IMG/VR virus record: IMGVR_UViG_2913128013_000001
Coordinates: 1 to 34,296 of that record
Reading direction: 5' to 3' (one strand)
Length of the DNA stretch: 34,296 bases
From: a virus
Taxonomy: Duplodnaviria > Heunggongvirae > Uroviricota > Caudoviricetes
Shown here: piece after piece, positions 6,560-28,885 of the stretch
Position numbering within the stretch: the first letter of the stretch is position 1
How the letters are laid out: each line of letters starts with the position of its first letter
Notes under the pieces: generated by a model
Told to the model about the DNA's origin: nothing
The model's input: only the letters and a program-made list of their open reading frames with translations
The model's database searches: none
Program-made: the position numbers and the translations under genes

Positions 6560-6788
6560 AGAACGCCGCCAGTCGTGAAACTTGTTTTCAGGGCTGGCGG
6601 GGTTGAACAACGAGCGAAGCGAGGCGTTAGTTGACAGTCATATTTTTACTGCGTTGGTGCTGGTTTTTGACGGTTGAAAGGAGTTAGCTCGGAGAGCTAA
6701 AGCTAACAACTTACAAATATTCAAAAGTAAGCTTCCTGTTGTTAACATAAGGTCGATTTTTTATGTGGATGATGCAAAAAGGATAGCT

Positions 6789-7520
6789 ATGGATACTGTA
6801 ATCGCTTTTCTATCACTCGCTTTTTTCGTTGCTTTTTTCATCGGGTTAATCAAACCATCACTGGTGCGGATGCCGAACCGTAAACGTGCAAGTGCGGTTT
6901 ATCTCGGAGGAGGTTTTGTATTGAGCATAATTGGTTCAATACTCTATCCAACAGAAAAAAGCCAGCCAGTTGCTAAAACTGATACATCAACCGTTGCAGA
7001 ACACCAAGTCCAAAAAACATTCGAATATGGTGGAAAAACACTCAAGGAATATCGGAACGAGCCAAAGAAAACTCGACACGATATTGTGAATAGTTACATT
7101 GATTTTAAGAAAGTGCCAGTCACCGCATCAGATGCATTTTATGCCTGCATGAGTGAATATACTTTTACCAAAGATGATGAGTTGAAACTCGGTGATGTTC
7201 TTGGGTGGTGCTTTAATGATTATGAAAATGACCCGAATTCACTAAACAATAAAATCAATCTTGATACATTTCAGAGTAATTTTAGTGGTTGGGATGGTTC
7301 TTATCGTCCATTGGAAAAACTAATTAAAGATAATATGAACGATGATTCATCTTATAAACATGTGTCAACGGTATATCATTTGGTTTTGAATAAAGACCCG
7401 CACGCCATTGTGAAAACCACATTTCGTGGCACTAATGCTTATGGAGGAGTAGTTAAACAGACTATTGCTGCGCGTGTCGACATCCGAACGGGCGAAGTCG
7501 TTTCAGTATTAGATAACTAA
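6789..7520 (+). CDS. Membrane-anchored hypothetical protein, 243 aa (cargo island A, gene 1)
   Basis: ATG at 6789 with AAGGA 6 nt upstream. Two predicted N-terminal transmembrane helices (VIAFLSLAFFVAFFIGLI and VYLGGGFVLSIIGSILYP) followed by a soluble domain of roughly 180 aa. Strongly AT-rich compared with flanking phage genes. Confidence 0.55.
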   Translation: MDTVIAFLSLAFFVAFFIGLIKPSLVRMPNRKRASAVYLGGGFVLSIIGSILYPTEKSQPVAKTDTSTVAEHQVQKTFEYGGKTLKEYRNEPKKTRHDIVNSYIDFKKVPVTASDAFYACMSEYTFTKDDELKLGDVLGWCFNDYENDPNSLNNKINLDTFQSNFSGWDGSYRPLEKLIKDNMNDDSSYKHVSTVYHLVLNKDPHAIVKTTFRGTNAYGGVVKQTIAARVDIRTGEVVSVLDN

Positions 7521-7632: not shown

Positions 7633-8922
7633 ATGAAGTTTAAGACTGAATTGAGTCGAAAATTGCATGACTCGGTAGTGTTTGATTTGAAAAAAGACCT
7701 GGTAAAATTAGAGGGAAACCTAAAAAATACAGATTTGTTGTTGTCGTTTCAGTTCAAAATAATAAGGAATATAATTAGAAGTGAAAGGATGATCAAAGGA
7801 TTAAAGTCTTTCTTAGGGGAACTAAAGGCAACAAAAAGAAAAGGTGGTTTAAAAAAAGAACAATCTAAACTTATTAAGGAAAATATTAAGAGTGTTGAGC
7901 AGGTTATTGATGATGTGAAATTTAAAATATATATCTTCAAAATGTTTGGTGATAGTGTTGCTTTTTTGTATTTGGATAAGTTTGATATTAAGCATTTTTT
8001 TTATAATGTTGTGGATTACAGTCCCAAGGAGTCAGCGGGCTATATGGGAGGGAAGGATGGCTTAAAAGAAGAATGGGGATTGGTGAAGAAGGCCTGCAAG
8101 GCTGGTGTTCCTACGTTACTCAATGATATTACAATGAGTATGAGGCATGGTGATGTTTGTTTACTTGGTGAAGGTGCACCAGTACTGGTGGAGGTGAAAT
8201 CAAGTCAAAATAAAAATGATCGTGTTGAACGTCAAAAAAATAACCTTAATAGACTAGCTGAATTTTTAGCAGAAGATAAAGCTGAAGATTTTAGAGGGAT
8301 GCCATTAGTGTTAAGGAAAGAACTGTGTTTTTCAGAAGTTACATATAAAAAAGAATTTAATGAGCATCTGAATGTATGCAGGAAAAAAGGAATTTCATGG
8401 GTAAGGCTAGAAGATGGATTTTATGTGGTATCTAATCGTGGCTGTGATCTGGAAATAGCATTATCACAGTTGGATCTTAGAGGGAGGAAAATTGCACCTA
8501 TATTTTTGAATGAATATAAAAATAATCAATTGTGGGTTCCTTTAACTCCATTTGTTAATCTTATAAATGATGCGCGTGATTTGTGTGACTTTATAAATGG
8601 GGAGTTAACTATTCTCTGTGTTCTTGATTTGGATTGTTTTAAACAAATAGCTTTGAATGAAGGGTTTGAGCTTGTTTTTGTCGATGGTGAAGACTATTCG
8701 ATGATATTTAAAGAATTTGGTAGCTCATTGATTTGGGGTGTGTCATGGCAAATGATGCTTCGCACTCCTTTAGAAATGGTGTCAATGTCTTGGTTAATTA
8801 AAGATTCAATTGATAGATTTAAGCGTTTACAAAAGCAACATGCTGAGATGCAGCCTGCCACTGATGTTAATACATCCGAAACCTCCTTGTTTGAAAAATA
8901 TAGGCCTCTTTTTACAAAGTAG
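7633..8922 (+). CDS. Hypothetical protein with PD-(D/E)xK-like nuclease motif, 429 aa (cargo island A, gene 2)
   Basis: ATG at 7633 with GAGGGAA RBS. Very AT-rich and Lys-rich. Central motif E147...D165...D174(HGDVCLLG)...E187-V-K189(PVLVEVKSS) fits the restriction-endonuclease-like fold pattern. No Walker A motif seen. Confidence 0.6.
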   Translation: MKFKTELSRKLHDSVVFDLKKDLVKLEGNLKNTDLLLSFQFKIIRNIIRSERMIKGLKSFLGELKATKRKGGLKKEQSKLIKENIKSVEQVIDDVKFKIYIFKMFGDSVAFLYLDKFDIKHFFYNVVDYSPKESAGYMGGKDGLKEEWGLVKKACKAGVPTLLNDITMSMRHGDVCLLGEGAPVLVEVKSSQNKNDRVERQKNNLNRLAEFLAEDKAEDFRGMPLVLRKELCFSEVTYKKEFNEHLNVCRKKGISWVRLEDGFYVVSNRGCDLEIALSQLDLRGRKIAPIFLNEYKNNQLWVPLTPFVNLINDARDLCDFINGELTILCVLDLDCFKQIALNEGFELVFVDGEDYSMIFKEFGSSLIWGVSWQMMLRTPLEMVSMSWLIKDSIDRFKRLQKQHAEMQPATDVNTSETSLFEKYRPLFTK

Positions 8923-9011
8923 TCAGATGCTGTAGGTGTATATGCTATTGCATTAATTTGCATGCAAAACAAGTAGAGGTAAAACTCTTACAGGCTGCTT
9001 GGGGGATAGCT

Positions 9012-9039
9012 TTTGAATGCTAATGCATTTGCATTCAAA
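9012..9039. repeat. Perfect 9-bp inverted repeat with 10-nt spacer (TTTGAATGC-N10-GCATTCAAA) just left of cos
   Basis: Read directly from the sequence; the spacer contains the palindrome AATGCATT. A separate 12-bp perfect palindrome TTTGCATGCAAA lies at 8957-8968. Confidence 0.6.
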
Positions 9040-9058
9040 TTGCCCCACGAAGCGGGCG

Positions 9059-9077
9059 GGCGAGGCGGGGAAAGCAC
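9059..9077. other. cos: Candidate cos cohesive-end sequence (GGCGAGGCGGGGAAAGCAC)
   Basis: The 19-mer matches my recollection of the P2/186 cohesive end. It sits in the non-coding, GC-rich interval next to the portal gene, where cos lies in P2. Confidence 0.5.
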
Positions 9078-9219
9078 TGCGCGCTGGCGGTGGTGCTGAT
9101 TTTATTTTTTCAGCGTCTGAGCGCGTCGTGATGGCGTTTAGAGTGTGCGCCGGGGCGTTGGTGTGTCTGCGGGCTGTTTTGTGCGGTGGTGAGCGTGTGA
9201 GGGCGTGATGGCGGGGTGT

Positions 9220-9241
9220 AAAAAAGCCGCCCGCAGGCGGC
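9220..9241 (-). terminator. Rho-independent terminator downstream of portal gene Q
   Basis: On the minus strand: GCCGCC-tgcg-GGCGGC hairpin followed by TTTTTT, 5 nt after the Q stop codon. Confidence 0.6.
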
Positions 9242-9246
9242 GATGT

Positions 9247-10281
9247 TCAGCCGTTGTCAGTGTCCAGTGAGTAGTTTTTAAAGCGGATGACCTCCTGACC
9301 GAGCCAGCCGTTTATTTCCCGAATCCTGTCCTGTAACGGGATAAGCTCATTGCGGACAAAGACCTTTGCCACTTTCTCAATATCACCCAGCGACCCGACG
9401 TTCTCCGGCTTGCCGCCCATCAACTGAAAGGGGATGCGGTGCGCGTCCAGCAGGTCAGCGGCGCTGGATTTTTTGATATTAAAAAAATCGTCCTTTGTCG
9501 CCACTTCACTGAGCGGGATAATTTTGATGCCGTCTGGCTTTCCCTGTGGTGCATAGAGAAACAGATTATTAAAGTTATTGCGTCCTTTCGACTTGGCCAT
9601 GTTTTCGCGAAGTGAGTCAATGTAATCGCGATCCTGCAATGCGTCGGTGATATACATGATATATCCGGCATGTGCACCGTTTTCGTAATACTTGCGGCGG
9701 AACAGCGTGGCCGACTCATTCAGCCAGGCAGAGTTAAGGGCGCTCAGATATTCCGGCAGGCCGTACAGCTCCTGATTAATATCCGGCTCCAGCAGGTGAA
9801 ACACGGAGCCGGGCGTGAAAGGTGTCGGCTCGTTGAAGGATGGCACCCACCAGTAAACATCCTCCTCCACGCCACGGCGGGTATATTTTGCCGGTGAGGT
9901 TTCCAGTCTGATGACCTTACCGGTGGTGCTGTAACGCTTTTCCAGAAACGCATTACCGAACACCAGAAAATCCAGCACAAAGCGGCTGAAATCCTGCTGG
10001 GAAAGCCACGGATGCGGGATAAACGTTGAAGCCAGAATATTACGTTTGACGTAAATCGGTGAGCTGTGATGCACGGCAGCACGCAGGCTTTTTGCCAGAC
10101 CGGTAAAGCTGACCGGTGGCTCATACCATCTGCCGTTACTGATGCACTCGACATAATCCAGAATGTCACGGCGGTCGAGTACCGGCACCGGCTCGCCAAA
10201 GGTGAATGCCTCCATTTTCGGGGCGCTGGCGGTCATTGTTTTTGCCGCAGGTTGCGGTGTTTTCCCTTTTTTCTTGCTCAT
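9247..10281 (-). CDS. Q: Portal protein, 344 aa
   Basis: 344 aa, the same size as P2 gpQ; adjacent to cos and translationally coupled to the terminase gene. Confidence 0.9.
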   Translation of the reverse strand: MSKKKGKTPQPAAKTMTASAPKMEAFTFGEPVPVLDRRDILDYVECISNGRWYEPPVSFTGLAKSLRAAVHHSSPIYVKRNILASTFIPHPWLSQQDFSRFVLDFLVFGNAFLEKRYSTTGKVIRLETSPAKYTRRGVEEDVYWWVPSFNEPTPFTPGSVFHLLEPDINQELYGLPEYLSALNSAWLNESATLFRRKYYENGAHAGYIMYITDALQDRDYIDSLRENMAKSKGRNNFNNLFLYAPQGKPDGIKIIPLSEVATKDDFFNIKKSSAADLLDAHRIPFQLMGGKPENVGSLGDIEKVAKVFVRNELIPLQDRIREINGWLGQEVIRFKNYSLDTDNG

Positions 10282-12053
10282 CAGTAAAACTCCAGAATGG
10301 TGGATGTCAGCGGGGTGTTGATACCGGCGGTGAGTGGCTCATTTAACAGGGCGTGCATGGTCGCCCAGGCGAGGTCGGCGTGGCTGGCTTCCTCGCTGCG
10401 ACTGGCCTCATAGGTGGCGCTGCGTCCGCTGCTGGTCATGGTCTTACGGATAGCCATAAACGAGCTGGTGATGTCGGTGGCGCTGACGTCATATTCCAGA
10501 CAGCCACGTCGGATAACGTCTTTTGCCTTGAGCACCATTGCGGTTTTCATTTCCGGCGTGTAGCGGATGTCGCGCGCGGCGGGATAGAACGAGCGCACGA
10601 GCTGGAACACGCCGACACCGAGGCCGGTGGCATCAATACCGATGTATTCGACGTTGTATTTTTCGGTGAGTTTGCGGATGGATTCCGCCTGAGTGGCAAA
10701 GTCCATGCCTTTCCACTGGTGACGCTCAAGTATTCTGAATTTGCCACCGGCCACCACCGGCGGTGCCAGTACCACGCATCCGGCACTGTCGCCACGGTGT
10801 GACGGGTCGTAACCAATCCATACCGGGCGGGAGCCGAACGGATTTGCGGCAAACGGCGCATAGTCTTCCCATTCTTCCAGCGTGTCGACCATGCAGCGTT
10901 GCAGCTCCTCGAACGGGAACACCGACGCCTTGTCGTCAACAAATTCACACATGAACAGGTTTTTAAAATCGTCGGCGCTGTTTTCGCGTTTGAGCTGCTC
11001 AATGTCGAACAGCGTGCAGCCGCCTTTCAGCGCGTCCTCAATGGTGACAATCTGCCGCCACTGGCCGTCCGCACAGAGAAGCCCACCGGCAAGGGCGTTA
11101 TGACTGACGTCGATTTCCACGCGTTCAGCGGCGCTGGCGCGTCCCCGGTTAAACAGTTCACCGGACCAGAACGGGTAGGCGTCGTGCGCCAGCGTGGACG
11201 GGGTGGAGAAATAGGTCGAGCGCAGGTGACTCTGTGAGGCCATACCTGATGCCACCTTACGCAGTACCTGAAAATTCGGGATCCAGAAAATCTCGTCGAC
11301 GTACAGGTCGCCGTTATGGCTTTGTGCGGTGTTGGAGTTGGTGCCGAGAAAAATCAGTTTTGCGCCGTTATTGCCCAGGACAATCGGGTCACCGGTCAGG
11401 TCAACGTCAACCAGCCGGGCAAAGGCGATGATGTATTCGCGGAACACATACGCCTGCGTTTTACTGGCCGACAGAAAAATCTGGTTATGACCGGTTTTCA
11501 GGGCGCGCAGCAGCGCCTCGCGGGAAAAATAAAATGTCGCGCCAATCTGGCGGGATTTCAGGATATCGCGGATGCGGTGCTCAAGCCCGGCGCGATACCA
11601 GTGCAACTGATAGTCGAAAGACTGCTCAAAGAAAATCTGCTCCAGCTTTTCGATGGCCTCGTCACTGAAAAAATTCTTTTTCGGTTTGCGCCGTCCGCCT
11701 TTGTTGCGGTTAGCGACGTTCGGATTAAGGTCTGCCTCGTTGCCGGTCTGACTGTAACGGTTTACCCGTGCCAGTCGTTCAATCTGGCGTCCCAGCAGGT
11801 CAATTTCCTTGAAGTCACCGCCGGTTTTCTGCGGTTTGATGATGAGCTGGGTCAGCCGCGCTTCCAGGCTCATTTCGACACGGCTGATGGGGGCAACGTT
11901 GTCCCAGCCGTCGCGCTGTTTCCAGCTCTGCACTGTCGGGCGTTTCATCTGCAACATGGCGGCAATCTGCGGCACGGAAAATCCCTGCCAGTACAGCAGC
12001 GCCGCCTGACGACGCGGGTCGTGTAAAAGAGTGGTGTCTGTGGTGATGGTCAT
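10281..12053 (-). CDS. P: Terminase large (ATPase) subunit, 590 aa
   Basis: Start chosen at MTITTDTTLLHDPRRQ (ATG 12051-12053), giving 590 aa as in P2 gpP. Sits upstream of Q on the same strand. Confidence 0.9.
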   Translation of the reverse strand: MTITTDTTLLHDPRRQAALLYWQGFSVPQIAAMLQMKRPTVQSWKQRDGWDNVAPISRVEMSLEARLTQLIIKPQKTGGDFKEIDLLGRQIERLARVNRYSQTGNEADLNPNVANRNKGGRRKPKKNFFSDEAIEKLEQIFFEQSFDYQLHWYRAGLEHRIRDILKSRQIGATFYFSREALLRALKTGHNQIFLSASKTQAYVFREYIIAFARLVDVDLTGDPIVLGNNGAKLIFLGTNSNTAQSHNGDLYVDEIFWIPNFQVLRKVASGMASQSHLRSTYFSTPSTLAHDAYPFWSGELFNRGRASAAERVEIDVSHNALAGGLLCADGQWRQIVTIEDALKGGCTLFDIEQLKRENSADDFKNLFMCEFVDDKASVFPFEELQRCMVDTLEEWEDYAPFAANPFGSRPVWIGYDPSHRGDSAGCVVLAPPVVAGGKFRILERHQWKGMDFATQAESIRKLTEKYNVEYIGIDATGLGVGVFQLVRSFYPAARDIRYTPEMKTAMVLKAKDVIRRGCLEYDVSATDITSSFMAIRKTMTSSGRSATYEASRSEEASHADLAWATMHALLNEPLTAGINTPLTSTILEFY

Positions 12054-12226
12054 GAATACCTCGCCGTGATGAATACACGGCAAGGCTACTGAGTCGCGCC
12101 CCGCGATTCGCTAAGGTGCTGTTGTGTCAGTGATAAGCCATCCGGGACTGATGGCGGAGGATGCGCATCGTCGGGAAACTGATGCCGACATGTGACTCCT
12201 CTAATCACTATTCAGGACTCCTGACA
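12054..12226. promoter_or_regulatory. Divergent late promoter region (leftward P-Q and rightward O-N-M-L operons)
   Basis: 173-bp interval between divergent P and O starts. Contains the dyad CCGTG-N7-CACGG at 12064-12080. By analogy to P2, Ogr-activated promoters are expected but not resolved. Confidence 0.4.
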
Positions 12227-13081
12227 ATGGCAAAAAAAGTCTCAAAATTCTTTCGTATCGGCGTTGAGGGTGACACCTGTGACGGGCGTGTCATCAGTGC
12301 GCAGGATATTCAGGAAATGGCGGAAACCTTTGACCCGCGTGTCTATGGTTGCCGCATTAACCTGGAACATCTGCGCGGCATCCTGCCTGACGGTATTTTT
12401 AAACGTTATGGCGATGTGGCCGAACTGAAGGCCGAAAAGATTGATGACGATTCGGCGCTGAAAGGCAAATGGGCGCTGTTTGCGAAAATCACCCCGACCG
12501 ATGACCTTATCGCGATGAACAAGGCCGCGCAGAAGGTCTACACCTCAATGGAAATTCAGCCGAACTTTGCCAACACCGGCAAATGTTATCTGGTGGGGCT
12601 GGCCGTCACCGATGACCCGGCAAGCCTCGGCACGGAATACCTGGAATTCTGCCGCACGGCAAAACACAACCCCCTGAACCGCTTCAAATTAAGCCCTGAA
12701 AATCTGATTTCAGTGGCAACGCCCGTTGAGCTGGAATTTGAAGACCTGCCTGAAACCGTGTTCACCGCCCTGACCGAAAAGGTGAAATCCATTTTTGGCC
12801 GCAAACAGGCCAGCGATGACGCCCGTCTGAATGACGTGCATGAAGCGGTGACCGCTGTTGCTGAACATGTGCAGGAAAAACTGAGCGCCACTGAGCAGCG
12901 CCTCGCTGAGATGGAAACCGCCTTTTCTGCACTTAAGCAGGAGGTGACTGACAGGGCGGATGAAACCAGCCAGGCATTCACCCGCCTGAAAAACAGTCTC
13001 GACCACACCGAAAGTCTGACCCAGCAGCGCCGCAGCAAGGCCACCGGTGGTGGCGGTGACGCCCTGATGACGAACTGCTGA
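12227..13081 (+). CDS. O: Capsid scaffolding protein, 284 aa
   Basis: Start at MAKKVSKFF (ATG 12227), giving 284 aa as in P2 gpO. Lies immediately upstream of the major capsid gene. Confidence 0.85.
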   Translation: MAKKVSKFFRIGVEGDTCDGRVISAQDIQEMAETFDPRVYGCRINLEHLRGILPDGIFKRYGDVAELKAEKIDDDSALKGKWALFAKITPTDDLIAMNKAAQKVYTSMEIQPNFANTGKCYLVGLAVTDDPASLGTEYLEFCRTAKHNPLNRFKLSPENLISVATPVELEFEDLPETVFTALTEKVKSIFGRKQASDDARLNDVHEAVTAVAEHVQEKLSATEQRLAEMETAFSALKQEVTDRADETSQAFTRLKNSLDHTESLTQQRRSKATGGGGDALMTNC

Positions 13082-20919: not shown

Positions 20920-23538
20920 ATGAGCACGAAATTTAAAACCGTTATCACTACTGCCGGAGCCGCAAAGCTGGCAGCCGCCACTGTCCCCGGCGGGAAAAAA
21001 GTAACCCTGTCTGCAATGGCCGTGGGTGACGGTAATGGCAAATTGCCGGTGCCGGATGCCGGTCAGACGAAACTGGTGCATGAGGTCTGGCGTCACGCTC
21101 TGAATAAAGTCAGCGTGGATAACAAGAATAAAAACTATATCGTGGCTGAACTGGTTGTACCGCCCGAAGTGGGCGGCTTCTGGATGCGTGAGCTTGGTCT
21201 GTATGACGATGCCGGAACACTGATTGCGGTCGCTAACATGGCAGAAAGCTATAAGCCTGAACTGGCTGAAGGCTCCGGGCGTGCGCAGACCTGCCGCATG
21301 GTCATTATTGTCAGTAACGTGGCGTCTGTTGAGCTGAGTATTGATGCCAGCACAGTGATGGCGACGCAGGATTACGTCGATGACAAAATCGCAGAACATG
21401 AGCAGTCCCGCCGCCATCCTGACGCCACGCTGACAGAAAAAGGTTTTACTCAGTTAAGCAGTGCAACAAACAGCACCAGTGAGTCATTGGCGGCAACGCC
21501 AAAAGCGGTCAAGGCAGCAAATGACAACGCAAATTCACGTCTGGCGAAAAATCAGAATGGTGCAGATATCCAGGATAAATCAGCTTTTCTGGACAATGTT
21601 GGCGTTACCAGCCTGACGTTTATGAAAAACAATGGCGAAATGCCGGTTGATGCTGATCTGAATACGTTTGGTCCTGTTAAGGCTTATTCAGGTATCTGGT
21701 CTAAAGCAACATCCACCAACGCAACACTGGAGAAAAATTTCCCGGAAGATAATGCTGTCGGTGTGCTTGAGGTTTTTGCTGCCGGAAATTTTGCAGGTAC
21801 GCAACGCTTTACCACAAGAGACGGCAATGTATACATGCGTAAACTCGCCAATAAGTGGAATGGCACTGATGGTCCGTGGGGCGTATGGCGTCACACTCAA
21901 TCAGCGACCCGCCCTTTGAGTACGACTATAGACCTGAATACGCTTGGAGCCGCCGAGCATCTTGGTTTATGGCGTAACAGTAGCTCGGCTATAGCTTCAT
22001 ATGAACGCAATTATCCAGAGGAAGGCGGCTTTGCTCAGGGGACGCTTGAGATCCTCGAAGGCGGGAATTATGGAAGAACGCAACGTTATACCACTCGCCG
22101 TGGAAATATGTACGTCCGCTGCCTTGCGGCAAGCTGGGATGCATCAAATCCGCAGTGGGAACCGTGGTTAAGAGTCGGTCATCAGTCAGAGAGTCGTTAT
22201 TACGACGGGGATTTGAATGATGTGACTTCACCAGGTATTTACAGCGTTACAGGTAAAGCGACCAACGGTCCAATACTGGACGGAAACGGCGTGACAGTCC
22301 TCGGTATTCTGGAAGTGTTGAGGCGCTTTGATGGTGTTAACGTATGGCAGCGTTATACAACTGCCGGAACAGGTACAACCCTTAAAGGTCGCACGTTTGA
22401 GCGCGTTTTTACCGGCAGCTCGTGGAGCGAATGGCGGGAAGTCTACACCTCGTATTCACTTCCCGTGAATCTGGGTATCGGCGGTGTTACAGACAGGTTA
22501 TCCAGTCTGGACTGGCAGACCTACGACTTTATACCGGGCAGCATGATAACTGTCAGGCTTTCAGATATGACCAATATTCCCGATGGGATGGAATGGGGCG
22601 TCATTGATACTAACCTGATAAATATCACTGTTGGCCCCAGTGAAGGCGGAGGTGTCGCCCGTTCAATGCAGGTATGGCGCAGCACTTCAAACAAAACCAA
22701 CTATCGTTTTTTTACAGTCCGTTTATATGGCAATCCTGGGGAGCGTAGCTTCAATATTCGTCGGCTACCAATTATCGACGAAGCCCAGACATGGGAGGCA
22801 AAACAGACATTCAGCGGTGGCCTTTCAGGTGAGCTGTCCGGCAATGCTGCTACAGCAACAAAGCTGAAAACGGCAAGGACAATTAACGGCGTAAAATTTG
22901 ACGGCTCGGCAAATATTGAAGCGTTTCCGCCAGGTGTTCCGCTGCCGTGGCCATCAGATACACCACCTGCGGGCTATGCAATTATGCAGGGGCAGACGTT
23001 TGATAAGGCAGCATATCCGAAACTGGCTATAGCCTATCCTTCTGGTGTTATTCCAGATATGCGCGGCTGGACAATCAAGGGCAAACCCGCCAGTGGGCGT
23101 GCCGTATTGTCACAGGAACAGGACGGGATTAAATCGCATACTCACAGCGCCAGTGCGTCAAATACGGATTTAGGGACGAAAACGACCAGTTCATTTGATT
23201 ACGGCACGAAGACAGTCAGTACGTTTAACTACGGAACAAAAACCACTAATACCACAGGTAACCATACACATACCATTTACAGAGGGAATGCCAATACTAA
23301 TGGTGAAACCGGTAAAACAGGCTTTGACAACCCATCGTTTAATGGCACATCAGGAGCTGCCGGGAATCATGCCCACACGGTAGATATTGGCGCACATAAT
23401 CATACGGTTGGTATTGGTGCACATTCACACACGGTTGCTATTGGCTCACACGGGCACTCTATTACCGTTAATGCTACAGGTAATACAGAAAACACCGTCA
23501 AAAACATCGCATTTAACTATATTGTGAGGCTTGCATAA
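20920..23538 (+). CDS. H: Tail fibre protein H, 872 aa (extended, mosaic C-terminus)
   Basis: N-terminal region typical of P2-like fibre attachment. Central three tandem degenerate repeats of about 60 aa (21739-22450). C-terminal His-box repeats GNHxHT / GAHxHTV (about 23137-23470). Confidence 0.85.
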
Positions 23539-24116
23539 TGGCTTTCAGAATGAGTGCAGAAGCACAAACTATCCTCGTTTTCAATTTACTTGATGGAACC
23601 AATGAGTTTATTGGCGAAAGTGATGCATATATTCCGCCGCATACAGGTCTGCCTGCAAACAGTACAGATATTGCACCACCTGATATTCCTGCTGGTTATG
23701 CAGCCGTTTTCAATGCAGATGAAATGAAATGGGAACTGATGGAAGACCATCGCGGAAAGACCGTCTACGAAACGAAAACAGGAGCAGCCATTTATATTTC
23801 TGAACTTGGCGTATTACCTCCAGATGTGACAGCTATTTCCCCGGAGGGGGATTATCAGAAATGGAACGGAAATGCGTGGGTGAATGATGAGAATGCAGAG
23901 CGTGATGCACTTGTCAGAGCGGCGGAGTCTCAGAAGAAAGAGCAGATTGTATATGCCGGTGAAATTATTGGCATGCTGCAGGATGCTGTCGATTTAGATA
24001 TGGCTACCGAGGAAGAAAAGTTAAGCCTGACACACTGGAAAAAATACCGTGTGCTACTGAATCGCGTTCAGCCGGAAAATGCCCCGGATATAGAATGGCC
24101 AGAAATGCCGCAATAA
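23538..24116 (+). CDS. G: Tail fibre assembly chaperone G, 192 aa
   Basis: TAATG-coupled to H; size and position match a P2 gpG-type Tfa chaperone. Confidence 0.75.
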
Positions 24117-24435
24117 ATCGTATTAGCTCTGGTGTGAGATTACTCATCTATGGCACAGAGTAAAACCTAATCTGACTGTCCGCTCTGTGCCAAGGGCGGA
24201 CGTTAGAAATATAAAAGCATCTTTATAACCTGGTTGTTGGGGAGAGTTTTGTTGCGTTCGCCACCACTCCTGAGAATGCTGCTATTTACTATGGTAATAT
24301 TGACAGCTAAAATTTATAATGAAGAGCGACTCAATAGCCAGTTCAAGCCAGATTCTGATGGGGCATTAATGATATTCCTTCTCGCTATTTCGGTATGTTG
24401 CCCACTCTAGCATCTTTAGAATAAGGAACGAAACC

Positions 24436-24939
24436 GTGACAGAATTTCTTGAAAAAATGTTTGATCGTGTTTATTCGGAAAAAGACTTCAGCATTAATAT
24501 CGCCATATTTGTCTCCGGAATCGCAGGAGTTACCTGTTATCTTATTCTCCACGATTATGTACTGACGCTGTTTTCTTTTATTATTGTTTTTCCGGTTGTA
24601 AAGATTATTGCGGGAGGATTATACCTGCGAATTATTACCCTCAAGGGAGAGGCAGTTGCAGAAAAACGACTGGCAATGCTTTATAATTCTTTGACTGGAA
24701 GAGAAAAAGAAGTAGTAATGCACTTTGTGACGCATGGTGGTTCTGTTATGACATGGGGACAAATGAATAGGCTTGATGATCCTGAACCGGGTGTAGAATC
24801 TCTGGCCCGTCGTGGATTACTGAATACGTCCGTAACGATGGATGGTATGCGAGAAACGTTTGAACTAGATCTGACCCTCTTTAATTATGCATACAACTAT
24901 CACCCCCATCAGGAGAAGATGCTTACTTCAGAAGAATAA
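24436..24939 (+). CDS. Small membrane protein, 167 aa (cargo island B)
   Basis: GTG start at 24436 with AAGGA RBS (ATG alternative at 24460). Two predicted transmembrane helices in the first 60 aa, then a soluble C-terminal part. AT-rich. Confidence 0.45.
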   Translation: MTEFLEKMFDRVYSEKDFSINIAIFVSGIAGVTCYLILHDYVLTLFSFIIVFPVVKIIAGGLYLRIITLKGEAVAEKRLAMLYNSLTGREKEVVMHFVTHGGSVMTWGQMNRLDDPEPGVESLARRGLLNTSVTMDGMRETFELDLTLFNYAYNYHPHQEKMLTSEE

Positions 24940-25243
24940 GAAATTTGTAATCTTTATGATGAAAATCTTAAACAGTATGGCGCCTCCCATCCTGTTTATT
25001 CAAAGGATGTAAGGTTTACACATTCCTGAAAACTTCAGACTCAACCATGATGTATGAGCTGTAGTATGAAGTCTCTTTCCATCCAGTTAAGTAAATGTCT
25101 GCTCCTCGCTTAAAGCGGACTTTTAGCTTAGTTAGCTAGTCAGCTCAGTGCTAAAAGCTGTATAGTCTGTATTGATGAACTAAGGAGCAGATCAGGAGTA
25201 TTTTGGAGAGCGTTTTAGTTACTGTGAAATATAATAGATTGAA

Positions 25244-25272
25244 ACCATGAGGCTCTATTAGAACCTCATGGT
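25244..25272 (-). terminator. Candidate terminator hairpin downstream of the 675-aa gene
   Basis: 9-bp stem ACCATGAGG / CCTCATGGT with an 11-nt loop, 13 nt past the stop codon. The downstream tract on the minus strand is only moderately U-rich. Confidence 0.35.
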
Positions 25273-25284
25273 AAACTTAAATAC

Positions 25285-27312
25285 TTACTGAAGTAAAACA
25301 TTCATTCTTTCTCTCCGATAATCCACAAGTTGTTCAATATCGCTCTCAAGACTTTCTATCCCAAAAGCAACTGAATCACTAATTTGTAGAGTGTGTTTTT
25401 TGACAACAGTGCTTTCAAAAAACTCATTTAATTGAATTGGTTTTTCAAATTGTTTAATTAAGTCAGAGGCTTGAAGCGTATTATTTTCCCATAATTTATG
25501 CATGGGGTGATTTGTGGACGTTAACGTACCATATTCATTTCTTACTTTAATTCCACTTATATGACTATTGTGCAGTATTTTGCTAAGTGCCGAATAGTCA
25601 GTTACATACACCCCATAGTATTTCCCAGGAAGTGAGAATGGAAGGTTGTTGACAATTACTGGTATAATTTCAAAGTTATTAATATCAAGGCCAAATTTAT
25701 CGCTGAATACATCCTGGTGTTTTTTTAGACCATCAGCAAGTCTGATAACTTGATTAGCTGCGTCAATTAAAAACATTTTCTTCTTGAATGCTTTAGTTAC
25801 AGAACCACCGGATAAATTTGTATTTTTACATTCCAGAACAAATACTTTATCATCTAATACAATTATTGCATCATACTCATATTCTTCATTCTCTCTTTTG
25901 AACTTAAAATGCTGATGATTTATTTTTAAATCAGAGAGCATTTCGTGGATCTCTTTTTCAAAACCAAATCCTTTTTGGGAAAGATCTACTTTTAGTGATG
26001 AGAACTTTGATAATATAATGTTACTTATTCCAGGGCTGAAATAGCCAATACTACAGAATAGATAATCTCCAGATTTCATTTTTAAAAGAGGAGAATCATA
26101 AAGGTCACGGGATTCATTGTTAAAGCTAGCCAAATCAATAAATAGCTTTGATTTATTACCAGGTATACCAACTAATTGTAAATATGTGCTCAATTCCGAT
26201 GAAGTAAATACTTCTCTTTTTTCCGATATTTTGGATAGTCTTTCTAGCGCGGAGTAACACCTAACCCATTCACGCAGTGTTAAACCAAAAATTAACATGC
26301 TCTCATCAGTTAAACATAGAGTCTCGAGTAGTGCTACATATGCCGGAAACTCTGATGTCGTTATTGAATAACCGTTATTAATATCTGCAAGCCTAGTTAA
26401 ATTTTCATCTACTGTTTTATGGACATTATGTTTATACAACGCCTCCATGAAGTTCTGTGATAACTTTGAATACAGCCTTTCATTTGACATGTAATCCAAT
26501 CTTATGAATTGTTCTTTAGTTAGATTAAATTCATAGAATGTCTCAAGACCAGCGTTCTCTAATCCATTAGGTAAGTTTGTAGAGGTATATTCATTTAATT
26601 CATAATCAAATAGCAGGCATGTTTCTACAGAACGCTCTAAAGAAGACCACAGTATCGAATTGTAAAATATTACCCCAGCATCATTAATATCATCTTCCTT
26701 AACATCTACCATGTCAGGAATTACAATGAAACCCCCACTATTTAACTTATAATTAAAGCCAATCATCTTCAAACTAAGAGATAGATAATCGACTGTTTTG
26801 GATATTACAACATCAGGAGAGTATGATTCACCTTGTTTGTTTTTTAAGTATGCGGTAGAAATATCAAACAATTTTGGTTCCCGGTTAATGCTCTCTAGAT
26901 ATTTCTTTGTTTCGTTTTTTAAAAAATCTATCTCACCTTGCGCCCGTCTTATTATAGCCCAACACTGTATTTCCGGCGTTTTTTTGCTGATGGGTAAGCT
27001 TGATAAGTTAGATTTAATAACATCAAATATTTTTTCCGCACAAATACATAGTTTTTTAAGGTTATCTATTTTTTGTATTAAATCAGGGACACTTGTAGCT
27101 CCTTTTAAGTCGGTGAGGAATGAATTTCTTTTTTCCCGTAAATTCACATTGTGGGGTTGTATATTGATGTTTTTTTTAAACATCGCAAAAAGGAAACGAA
27201 GTATTTTATCATTATAATTCTGTTTTAACTGTATCACTATGTTCTTTGACTTGAATTTGCAATAGTCGATTTCTAACGTTTTATAGATATTTTCTGCATG
27301 TGATTGTGACAT
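25285..27312 (-). CDS. Large hypothetical protein with C-terminal PD-(D/E)xK nuclease-like motif, 675 aa (cargo island B)
   Basis: ATG at 27310-27312 with AAGG RBS. Very AT-rich, opposite strand to the phage late genes. Motif GFGFEKEIHE (E452/E454)...YDAIIVLDDKVFVLECK (D481, D487/D488, E494, K496). No Walker A motif. Confidence 0.6.
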   Translation of the reverse strand: MSQSHAENIYKTLEIDYCKFKSKNIVIQLKQNYNDKILRFLFAMFKKNINIQPHNVNLREKRNSFLTDLKGATSVPDLIQKIDNLKKLCICAEKIFDVIKSNLSSLPISKKTPEIQCWAIIRRAQGEIDFLKNETKKYLESINREPKLFDISTAYLKNKQGESYSPDVVISKTVDYLSLSLKMIGFNYKLNSGGFIVIPDMVDVKEDDINDAGVIFYNSILWSSLERSVETCLLFDYELNEYTSTNLPNGLENAGLETFYEFNLTKEQFIRLDYMSNERLYSKLSQNFMEALYKHNVHKTVDENLTRLADINNGYSITTSEFPAYVALLETLCLTDESMLIFGLTLREWVRCYSALERLSKISEKREVFTSSELSTYLQLVGIPGNKSKLFIDLASFNNESRDLYDSPLLKMKSGDYLFCSIGYFSPGISNIILSKFSSLKVDLSQKGFGFEKEIHEMLSDLKINHQHFKFKRENEEYEYDAIIVLDDKVFVLECKNTNLSGGSVTKAFKKKMFLIDAANQVIRLADGLKKHQDVFSDKFGLDINNFEIIPVIVNNLPFSLPGKYYGVYVTDYSALSKILHNSHISGIKVRNEYGTLTSTNHPMHKLWENNTLQASDLIKQFEKPIQLNEFFESTVVKKHTLQISDSVAFGIESLESDIEQLVDYRRERMNVLLQ

Positions 27313-27561
27313 AAAGAAACCTTACAGTGGTGGTAATATTTGACATGATGTCCATTGAGGTAGCATGCAGTTTATCCAATATCCTGAATACTCGCAAATT
27401 TAAAACAATATTAATGGAGAGTATAAATATCCTGCTTAACCGGACCATTCACTTTGAGAGATCTTCCGGCAAACCAATGTCCGCAGTTCGCTCAAAGTAG
27501 ACTGTCAGATTTGACAGAGCTTTGGTTACTTAATTTGTCAGTTGGAAACTGAGAGAGTACA

Positions 27562-27589
27562 AATCAAGGCCGGCGGGCTGATTGCCCGC
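27562..27589 (+). terminator. Rho-independent terminator upstream of the FI late operon
   Basis: GGCGGGC-tgatt-GCCCGCC hairpin followed by TTTTCTTTAT on the plus strand. Confidence 0.55.
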
Positions 27590-27694
27590 CTTTTCTTTAT
27601 CTGTTGTTTCATCCACTGACCAGTCAGGTCAAATAGCGTCTCATGCACTGCCCAACAGAAAATAGTTGCACCCATTAACCACGGAGTTAAACGG

Positions 27695-28885
27695 ATGAGT
27701 GACTATCATCACGGCGTGCAGGTGCTGGAGATTAACGACGGCACCCGCGTCATTTCCACCGTATCCACTGCCATTGTCGGCATGGTCTGCACGGCCAGCG
27801 ATGCGGATGCGGAAACCTTCCCCCTCAATAAACCGGTGCTGATTACCAATGTGCAGAGCGCAATTGCAAAGGCTGGTAAAAAAGGCACGCTGGCGGCGTC
27901 GTTGCAGGCCATCGCTGACCAGTCAAAACCAGTCACCGTTGTCGTGCGTGTTGAAGACGGCACCGGCGACGACGAGGAAACGAAACTCGCGCAGACCGTT
28001 TCCAATATCATCGGCACCACTGACGAAAACGGTCAGTACACCGGACTGAAAGCCCTGATGGGGGCTGAGTCGGTTACCGGCGTTAAACCGCGCATTCTTG
28101 GTGTGCCGGGGCTGGACACCAAAGAGGTTGCCGTCGCACTGGCATCGGTATGCCAGGAACTGAATGCATTCGGGTATATCAGCGCATGGGGCTGTAAAAC
28201 CATTTCCGAGGTGAAAGCCTACCGCCAGAATTTCAGCCAGCGTGAGCTGATGGTCATCTGGCCGGATTTCCTCGCATGGGATACGGTCACCAGCACCACC
28301 GCCACCGCGTATGCCACCGCCCGTGCGCTGGGTCTGCGCGCTAAAATCGACCAGGAGCAGGGCTGGCATAAAACGCTGTCCAACGTCGGGGTAAACGGTG
28401 TTACCGGCATCAGCGCATCTGTATTCTGGGATTTGCAGAAGTCCGGCACTGATGCTGACCTGCTGAACGAGGCAGGCGTCACAACGCTGGTTCGCCGCGA
28501 CGGTTTCCGTTTCTGGGGTAACCGTACCTGCTCCGATGACCCACTGTTCCTCTTTGAAAGCTACACACGCACCGCGCAGGTACTGGCTGACACGATGGCT
28601 GAGGCGCACATGTGGGCTATTGATAAGCCCATCACCGCAACGCTGATTCGCGACATCGTTGACGGCATCAATGCCAAATTCCGTGAACTGAAAAGCAACG
28701 GTTATATCGTGGATGGCACATGCTGGTTCAGTGAAGAAGCCAATGATGCGGAAACCCTCAAGGCCGGAAAACTGTATATCGACTACGACTACACCCCGGT
28801 GCCTCCTCTCGAAAACCTGACCCTGCGCCAGCGTATTACTTCAAGATACCTGGCAAGTCTGGTCACCTCGGTTAACAGCAATTAA
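27695..28885 (+). CDS. FI: Contractile tail sheath protein, 396 aa
   Basis: 396 aa, the same size as P2 gpFI; GGAG RBS; first gene of the FI-FII-E-T-U-D operon. Confidence 0.9.
   Translation: MSDYHHGVQVLEINDGTRVISTVSTAIVGMVCTASDADAETFPLNKPVLITNVQSAIAKAGKKGTLAASLQAIADQSKPVTVVVRVEDGTGDDEETKLAQTVSNIIGTTDENGQYTGLKALMGAESVTGVKPRILGVPGLDTKEVAVALASVCQELNAFGYISAWGCKTISEVKAYRQNFSQRELMVIWPDFLAWDTVTSTTATAYATARALGLRAKIDQEQGWHKTLSNVGVNGVTGISASVFWDLQKSGTDADLLNEAGVTTLVRRDGFRFWGNRTCSDDPLFLFESYTRTAQVLADTMAEAHMWAIDKPITATLIRDIVDGINAKFRELKSNGYIVDGTCWFSEEANDAETLKAGKLYIDYDYTPVPPLENLTLRQRITSRYLASLVTSVNSN

Follow-up and report, generated by a model that had tools for sequence, protein, structure and literature searches.

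A NERD-type nuclease gene in the Z/fun slot of a P2-like prophage, a candidate single-gene anti-phage system

The gene analyzed here encodes a protein of 675 amino acids (aa) in the virus record IMGVR_UViG_2913128013_000001 (positions 1 to 34,296; this whole stretch of 34,296 nucleotides [nt] is referred to below as the window), and proteins of similar design have been published under the names Upx, DS-26, and ZwsA, of which Upx is reportedly the single-gene system of Gao et al. 2020. The cryo-electron microscopy structure of Upx (9wuf; deposited chain of 1212 residues, ~143 kDa) comprises the three domains NTD, MD, and CTD, with an atypical second nuclease in the NTD (PMC13099982). The protein senses the ATPase domain of the phage large terminase, and an ExK mutant is dead (bioRxiv 10.64898/2026.04.30.721860). 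DS-26 "NERD" (WP_054626965.1, 532 aa; DefensePredictor) is a single-gene anti-phage system validated in Escherichia coli, and it has been described as a remote Upx homologue (PMC13092281). ZwsA (Zowangsin) of Pseudomonas aeruginosa is a stand-alone NERD RNA endonuclease acting against single-stranded RNA (ssRNA) phages, i.e., a protein of 716 aa with the domain order VHS-DUF647-NERD-S4, the residues E535, D567, E580, and K582, and 134 aa past the lysine (bioRxiv 10.64898/2026.04.06.716636). With respect to the location of the gene, the relevant precedent is phage P2 itself, in which Z/Fun, a "phage exclusion" gene, lies between genes G and FI; the Z-region is one of three loci of P2-like phages that hold horizontally acquired genes (PMC3091744).

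The 675-aa protein is predicted from its sequence and its structural model to be an intact NERD-type PD-(D/E)xK nuclease, and its gene is probably a single-gene anti-phage defense in which an N-terminal sensor or brake would be joined to a nuclease effector. We infer the defense role because the occupant of the same slot in P2 is a phage exclusion gene and because relatives of the gene are found in other prophages, on plasmids, and next to known defense genes.

The gene, its slot, and its predicted nuclease core

The gene is complete and occupies positions 25285 to 27312 on the minus strand (ATG start; stop codon at 25285-25287), and its product has a mass of 77.8 kDa and an isoelectric point of 6.2. 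As an earlier note on this DNA had stated, it is AT-rich and runs opposite to the late genes: its GC content is 0.322, compared with 0.505 for the whole window and 0.53 to 0.58 for the flanking late genes, which lie on the plus strand. The open reading frame (ORF) is a real gene and not a chance ORF, because its relatives are full length and because a comparison with its Klebsiella orthologue gives a ratio of nonsynonymous to synonymous substitutions (dN/dS) of 0.20. Purifying selection acts on all three parts of the protein, with dN/dS values of 0.22 for the N-terminal region, 0.14 for the nuclease, and 0.18 for the C-terminal region.

The window as a whole represents a P2-like prophage with the gene order integrase, replication gene, portal, terminase, and tail genes. 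The left edge of the variable site is formed by a P2 G-like tail fiber assembly gene (23538-24116, plus strand; Caudo_TAP, E value of 1.5e-39) and the right edge by a P2 FI-like tail sheath gene (27695-28885, plus strand; matches to Phage_sheath_1, Phage_sheath_1C, and Gp18 domain III). Both flanks are matched by sequenced Peduovirus genomes, but the cargo between them differs, e.g., a NUDIX hydrolase and a HAD phosphatase in P24C9. The location between G and FI, at a site that varies among relatives, places the gene in the Z-region, and the assignment to the Z/fun position that had been made from the letters alone was borne out. The same holds for its rank as the largest cargo gene of the window, since the next accessory gene, at the other hotspot, encodes 429 aa. 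An Rfam scan of the window returned no match.

The nuclease core comprises residues 441 to 546 (positions 25675-25992, minus strand). Pfam NERD (PF08378) matches residues 448 to 532 with 23.4 bits, i.e., barely above the gathering cutoff of 22.1; the domain is also matched in 33 of 45 diverse relatives (best E value of 7.1e-7), among which no further domain recurs, and RefSeq names the protein "NERD domain-containing protein." Of the Pfam models that the earlier note had proposed for comparison, NERD was thus matched, while DUF4263 and Mrr_cat were not. The motifs that had been read as a restriction endonuclease signature are located at residues 448 to 454 (GFGFEKE), 480 to 488 (YDAIIVLDD), and 490 to 496 (VFVLECK), and they contain the proposed catalytic residues D481, E494, and K496. 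Together with E452, these residues are encoded at positions 25957-25959 (E452), 25870-25872 (D481), 25831-25833 (E494), and 25825-25827 (K496), and a further conserved core residue, Q521, is encoded at 25750-25752 (all minus strand). In the set of 45 relatives, which share 20 to 50% identity, R279, D403, P408, K447, G448, E452, D481, F491, C495, K496, Q521, and R524 are invariant and E494 is conserved in at least 90%; the dominant catalytic spacing in the family is E-29-D-13-ExK.

The AlphaFold2 model, which was calculated from 20 homologues (pLDDT of 84.8, pTM of 0.81), shows the alpha-beta-beta-beta-alpha-beta core of a PD-(D/E)xK nuclease at residues 449 to 555. The first helix of this core contains E452, the second strand D481, and the third strand E494-x-K496, and the helix that follows bears Q521/R524. 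The score over the cutoff, the E...D...(D/E)xK residues, and the predicted restriction endonuclease-like fold agree in assigning the protein to the NERD/PD-(D/E)xK nucleases, and the nuclease core that had been proposed from its motifs was thus recovered in silico. Weak sequence links of the core lead to the Can2/CARF_PDDEXK nuclease domains, and the names listed with the comparison of the core are FokI, VC1899, Shedu SduA (8.6), McrC (8.5), NucS, and Hna.

The core is preceded by an N-terminal region (residues 1 to 440; positions 25993-27312, minus strand), a putative sensor or regulatory module that is mostly alpha-helical with small beta inserts in the model. Its conserved positions include W222, R279, E321, E348, R351, and the motif SRDLYDSPL at residues 401 to 409, in which D403 and P408 are the invariant ones. 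In agreement with the first reading of the sequence, the N-terminal ~450 aa contain no recognizable motif, and no P-loop (Walker-A motif) was found in the 675-aa protein. The core had been described as C-terminal, and this description overlooked a conserved region of ~130 aa that follows it (residues 547 to 675; positions 25288-25674, minus strand), with W608, P625, and Q627 as conserved residues. This region contributes the last core strand to the model and then forms two beta-hairpins, two short helices, and a terminal helix (residues 560 to 675), for which no known fold was detected. A Foldseek search of the Protein Data Bank returned no full-length structural match under an E value of 0.03. 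The SEC-C zinc-binding motif is present in 2 of the 45 family members.

The gene belongs to a large family whose whole architecture is kept. A protein database search retrieved 44 relatives with 99 to 26% identity, nearly all of 670 to 700 aa, from Escherichia, Klebsiella, Kosakonia, Proteus, Pantoea, Pectobacterium, Serratia, Enterobacter, and Morganella, and the same 44 proteins were returned when the database was searched again with the 45-sequence profile. When 1.84 billion cluster representatives (clusters at 50% identity) were searched exhaustively with a profile, 947 matches were obtained, 637 of them at an E value of ≤1e-10 and 329 at ≤1e-30; nearly all of the best 150 have 650 to 750 aa and were aligned end to end. 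The wider members stem from Pseudomonas, including P. aeruginosa, Shewanella, Halomonas, Mesorhizobium, Bradyrhizobium, Afipia, and Brevundimonas, supplemented by one Mesoflavibacter (Bacteroidota) and one metagenome-assembled genome of the Verrucomicrobia. Plasmid-borne members were found in Erwinia, Klebsiella michiganensis, and Agrobacterium. A tblastn search of phage GenBank records revealed no member of the family. The longest ORFs over the tblastn matches in "Candidatus Pantoea haifensis" and Halomonas sp. have only 342 and 369 aa, respectively, which suggests that these copies are disrupted or decaying. Proteins of Firmicutes plasmids (Lysinibacillus match) align only to residues ~370 to 620, i.e., the pre-nuclease part, the nuclease, and the start of the C-terminal region, and their sequences hint at a smaller ancestral module.

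Genomic neighborhoods, mobility, and further cargo

The genomic contexts of the relatives are diverse. In Pectobacterium, the family gene is located in a mobilizable element beside HxsD/radical-SAM genes and DUF6119, and in Morganella it adjoins an integrase fragment, with one variant that is accompanied by umuDC, YaaC, and a CBASS operon. In Klebsiella, it is found between umuDC and YaaC, and the order umuD-umuC-family gene-YaaC is hence shared with Morganella, though the family proteins of the two are only ~36% identical. A prophage-like region contains the gene together with a resolvase and NUDIX/NrtR genes, with BrxL nearby, and other prophage settings place it beside Q-like genes of a lambdoid prophage, beside a CI-like repressor and a C5 methylase, or between terminase and integrase. 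The 143 neighboring ORFs that were examined at 16 species-representative loci include genes for Gabija GajA/GajB, for type III restriction enzymes, and for a type II (Eco29kI) restriction-modification pair. The set further contains integrases and transposases as well as a terminase and a conjugative coupling protein.

Family genes of the Pseudomonas clade invariably lie 20 bp upstream of a same-strand gene for a 482-aa KAP nucleoside triphosphatase (NTPase), which matches the PADLOC single-gene candidate PDC-S20 (E value of 3.8e-115) and, more distantly, PifA and QatA. In P. aeruginosa and Pseudomonas sp., the pair is situated at a prophage end near lysis genes (P. aeruginosa, 9001-12508). The pair could be a two-gene variant or merely two adjacent single-gene systems. 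A two-gene system with the KAP NTPase was rejected for the family, as only Pseudomonas members show the arrangement and the KAP protein counts as a PADLOC candidate in its own right.

No neighbor recurs across lineages in the 143 ORFs of the 16 loci and the other contexts, which speaks for the reading as a single-gene system. A linked conserved methyltransferase, as in classical restriction-modification systems (types I to III), was not found across the homologues examined. In the survey of neighborhoods that the earlier note had recommended, copies lie near CBASS, BrxL, Gabija, restriction-modification, and PDC-S20 genes, but some have no defense neighbor, and the association is qualitative. 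A solitary mobile gene that repeatedly occupies moron slots and positions beside immune genes is what an anti-phage gene looks like.

The ends of the shared DNA show how the gene travels. The window has only positions 25094 to 27505 in common with Klebsiella (90.6% identity), i.e., the gene and ~190 bp on each side. A 3.3-kb cassette of two convergent genes, a 167-aa ORF and the NERD gene (24182-27502), is shared at 99.07% with other E. coli loci, where it occupies the terminus of another kind of prophage, which has a Mu-type baseplate, and adjoins a Pin-type invertase. Since the DNA shared between different prophage contexts stops at the edges of the gene or the cassette, the gene travels as a unit of its own from one prophage type to an unrelated one. 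Only repeats at chance level were found in the search for flanking repeats as a sign of transposition. The palindrome CTGTCAGATTTGACAG (27502-27517) coincides with the end of the DNA that is shared with Klebsiella (27505) and E. coli (27502), and it possibly serves recombination or regulation at the border of the cassette.

The gene is followed by a hairpin with 14-nt arms (25244-25272, minus strand), which begins 12 nt past the stop codon, precedes a T-rich tract, and is likely the terminator of the NERD gene. An AT-rich upstream stretch of 193 bp (27313-27505, minus strand), as defined by the end points of homology, travels with the gene and for this reason presumably holds its own promoter and ribosome-binding site; a strong sigma-70 consensus was sought upstream of the gene and not found. 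Between the cargo and the sheath gene, a strong GC-rich hairpin with a T run (GGCGGGCTGATTGCCCGCC TTTTCTTTAT; 27572-27590, plus strand) probably acts as an insulator of the late tail operon against the island.

The companion ORF of the cassette (24436-24939, plus strand) encodes 167 aa with a hydrophobic N-terminal half (approximately two membrane helices), and it has no match in Pfam, PADLOC, NCBIfam, or PHROGs. Two different prophage contexts in E. coli contain it together with the NERD gene (99% identity), and a solitary copy with 92% DNA identity is present in a tRNA-Ser island that also encodes H-NS paralogues and RepL. Its role as an obligate partner or antitoxin was rejected, as it is absent in Klebsiella and all other lineages examined and occurs solo elsewhere.

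The other P2 variable site of the window, between replication gene A and portal gene Q (tin/old position), also carries cargo. Two genes for 251 aa (6765-7520, plus strand) and 429 aa (7633-8922, plus strand) have a low GC content of 0.31 to 0.38 and no Pfam or PADLOC match, and the complete pair, annotated as hypothetical, is present in 17 of 5426 complete E. coli genomes. A known defense hotspot of the window contains here a further pair of unexplained cargo genes.

Proposed role and rival explanations

According to the scenario that we favor, the P2-like prophage would use the Z/fun slot of P2 for lysogenic-conversion cargo, namely a stand-alone nuclease against phages (invaders). The divergent helical N-terminal ~440 residues, i.e., a superhelical part followed by winged-helix-like elements, would keep the enzyme inactive until they recognize a cue of the infecting phage, which might be a phage protein or an unusual nucleic acid structure. 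Recognition would then free or position the divalent metal-binding NERD site of E452, D481, E494, and K496, and the nuclease would cut nucleic acid, with DNA being likelier than RNA, so that phage replication is stopped, possibly at the cost of the infected cell. Such a mechanism would need no methyltransferase, antitoxin, or NTPase partner. Autoinhibition, sensing by the N-terminal region, and the substrate are those elements of the scenario that we infer. The sensor-effector pattern is suggested by the pairwise identity across the family, which is 19% over the first 150 residues, climbs to 36% within the nuclease, and drops to 27% past it in the C-terminal domain, and by published single-protein analogues such as Upx that function in this manner.

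Several observations weigh against this reading. The putative sensor role of the N-terminal region is argued solely from analogy and divergence. In Enterobacter, the family gene stands alone amid housekeeping genes and has no defense neighbor, and the association with defense genes in the remaining contexts is a qualitative one. The island is carried by only 3 of 5426 complete E. coli genomes, and the gene is hence rare. Scans of the 675-aa protein with PADLOC 2.0 (E value of ≤1), PHROGs, and NCBIfam returned no match. Finally, ZwsA, the sole NERD single-gene system with biochemistry, cuts RNA (bioRxiv 10.64898/2026.04.06.716636).

A more far-reaching version of the defense hypothesis is tentative: the family of 650- to 750-aa proteins, with at least 329 clusters from Enterobacterales and Alphaproteobacteria to Bacteroidota, would be an unrecognized widespread single-protein immune sensor, with a fast-evolving helical N-terminal module that detects a phage cue unlike those of Upx and Avs and a conserved C-terminal region that serves as a new substrate-binding or oligomerization element.

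Among the alternatives, a constitutive type IV-like (modification-dependent) or other methylase-independent restriction enzyme, which would cut foreign DNA with neither activation nor cell killing, deserves the most attention, and we consider it rather unlikely. Its winged-helix-like and N-terminal parts would bind modified bases or a particular DNA structure directly, but known domains that read modified bases (SRA, YTH, DUF3427, or the like) were not detected in Pfam scans of the protein and its relatives, nor was Mrr_cat. Moreover, the helical N-terminal region of at least 300 aa is far bigger than a DNA reader module and is the fastest-evolving part of the protein, and this explanation is weaker because such a size and such fast evolution fit the sensing of a protein or another trigger better.

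The second alternative is an RNA-targeting nuclease like ZwsA of P. aeruginosa, whose NERD site would cleave structured phage RNA such as ssRNA phage genomes or transcripts, and we give it little credence. An RNA substrate is possible by analogy with the NERD-like Can2/Card1 and ZwsA, and DNA is favored only because most structural neighbors of the core are DNases.

A non-immune function as a selfish or housekeeping nuclease of mobile elements (addiction toxin, anti-plasmid or entry exclusion factor, or accessory of DNA repair or recombination) would be compatible with the permanent location of the gene on mobile elements, with NERD domains that have no single established function, and with the repeated umuDC adjacency in both Klebsiella and Morganella, on account of which repair or recombination was considered, but it is highly improbable given that no antitoxin-like neighbor is conserved, umuDC is absent from most contexts, and the occupied prophage slots are classic exclusion or moron sites.

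The anti-phage nuclease with an N-terminal sensor or brake therewith stays our preferred reading. The idea of the earlier note that the gene encodes an undescribed defense protein is plausible, but it is less singular than it seemed, because the protein is a member of a large family (329 clusters) and similar designs have been published. If true, a widely distributed, compact single-gene nuclease system would be added to the catalogue of bacterial immunity, and the Z-region of P2 would have a second documented type of exclusion cargo. With a single gene, clear catalytic residues, and E. coli as host, it would also make the silencing and switching on of NERD nucleases accessible to study, and it would help to sort the relations among the NERD-type single-gene systems. 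Current thinking would not be overturned, as sensor-plus-PD-(D/E)xK proteins in prophage hotspots are by now an expected class.

Comparison with known systems

Judged by its sequence, the protein falls into the NERD domain superfamily and into no named defense family tested, with ZwsA being compared by description only. The earlier statement that it cannot be placed in a named family thus holds with respect to the empty PADLOC 2.0, PHROGs, and NCBIfam scans, on account of which membership of a catalogued defense system was rejected, but not with respect to its core, which is Pfam NERD and labeled as such in RefSeq. PADLOC 2.0 scans of four relatives likewise gave no match. With the P2 gene Z/fun, it shares the slot between G and FI and the status as cargo of a P2-like prophage; this likeness is one of position alone, as the sequences were not compared.

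Like the 675-aa protein, DS-26 is encoded by an accessory single gene of E. coli and combines helices in its N-terminal part with a NERD-like PD-(D/E)xK domain, but it is 143 aa shorter. An apparently shared motif before the core (D-x-P-[LF]-[LI]...G-D) was considered as a sign of identity, which was rejected, since hhalign with the 45-sequence profile gave a probability of 0.5% and BLASTP found nothing (399 of the 532 DS-26 residues compared). Can2 and Card1 differ in that no CARF match (Pfam and PADLOC) and no ligand-binding Rossmann-like domain were found in the 675-aa protein, whose N-terminal region is helical, and no link of the family to type III CRISPR was found.

Like ZwsA, the protein is a stand-alone multidomain NERD effector of genomic islands with a long helical N-terminal region, a C-terminal extension, and the E...D...ExK residues in D-13-E-x-K spacing. 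According to the description of ZwsA, it differs in numbering and size: the family lysine is located at ~500 to 530 and followed by ~175 residues, and the P. aeruginosa member has 679 aa with D490/E503/K505. The residues E535/D567/E580/K582 were found at those positions in none of 191 family sequences, and neither VHS, DUF647, and S4 Pfam domains in the protein and its relatives nor an S4-like fold was detected. Identity with ZwsA was rejected on the basis of numbering and size, also for the P. aeruginosa member, by description only; the family might be a deep-branching DNA- or RNA-targeting relative of ZwsA.

Shedu (SduA) is distinguished by different N- and C-terminal regions, and the 675-aa protein has neither a DUF4263 nor a PADLOC Shedu match. 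The closest structure is that of Upx, which has about twice the size and whose PADLOC profile is not matched. In the model, the N-terminal 440 residues of the 675-aa protein are helical with no second nuclease core, and a distinct C-terminal domain is present past the core. The logic of the proposed mechanism would, by analogy, be the same as that of Upx and Shedu.

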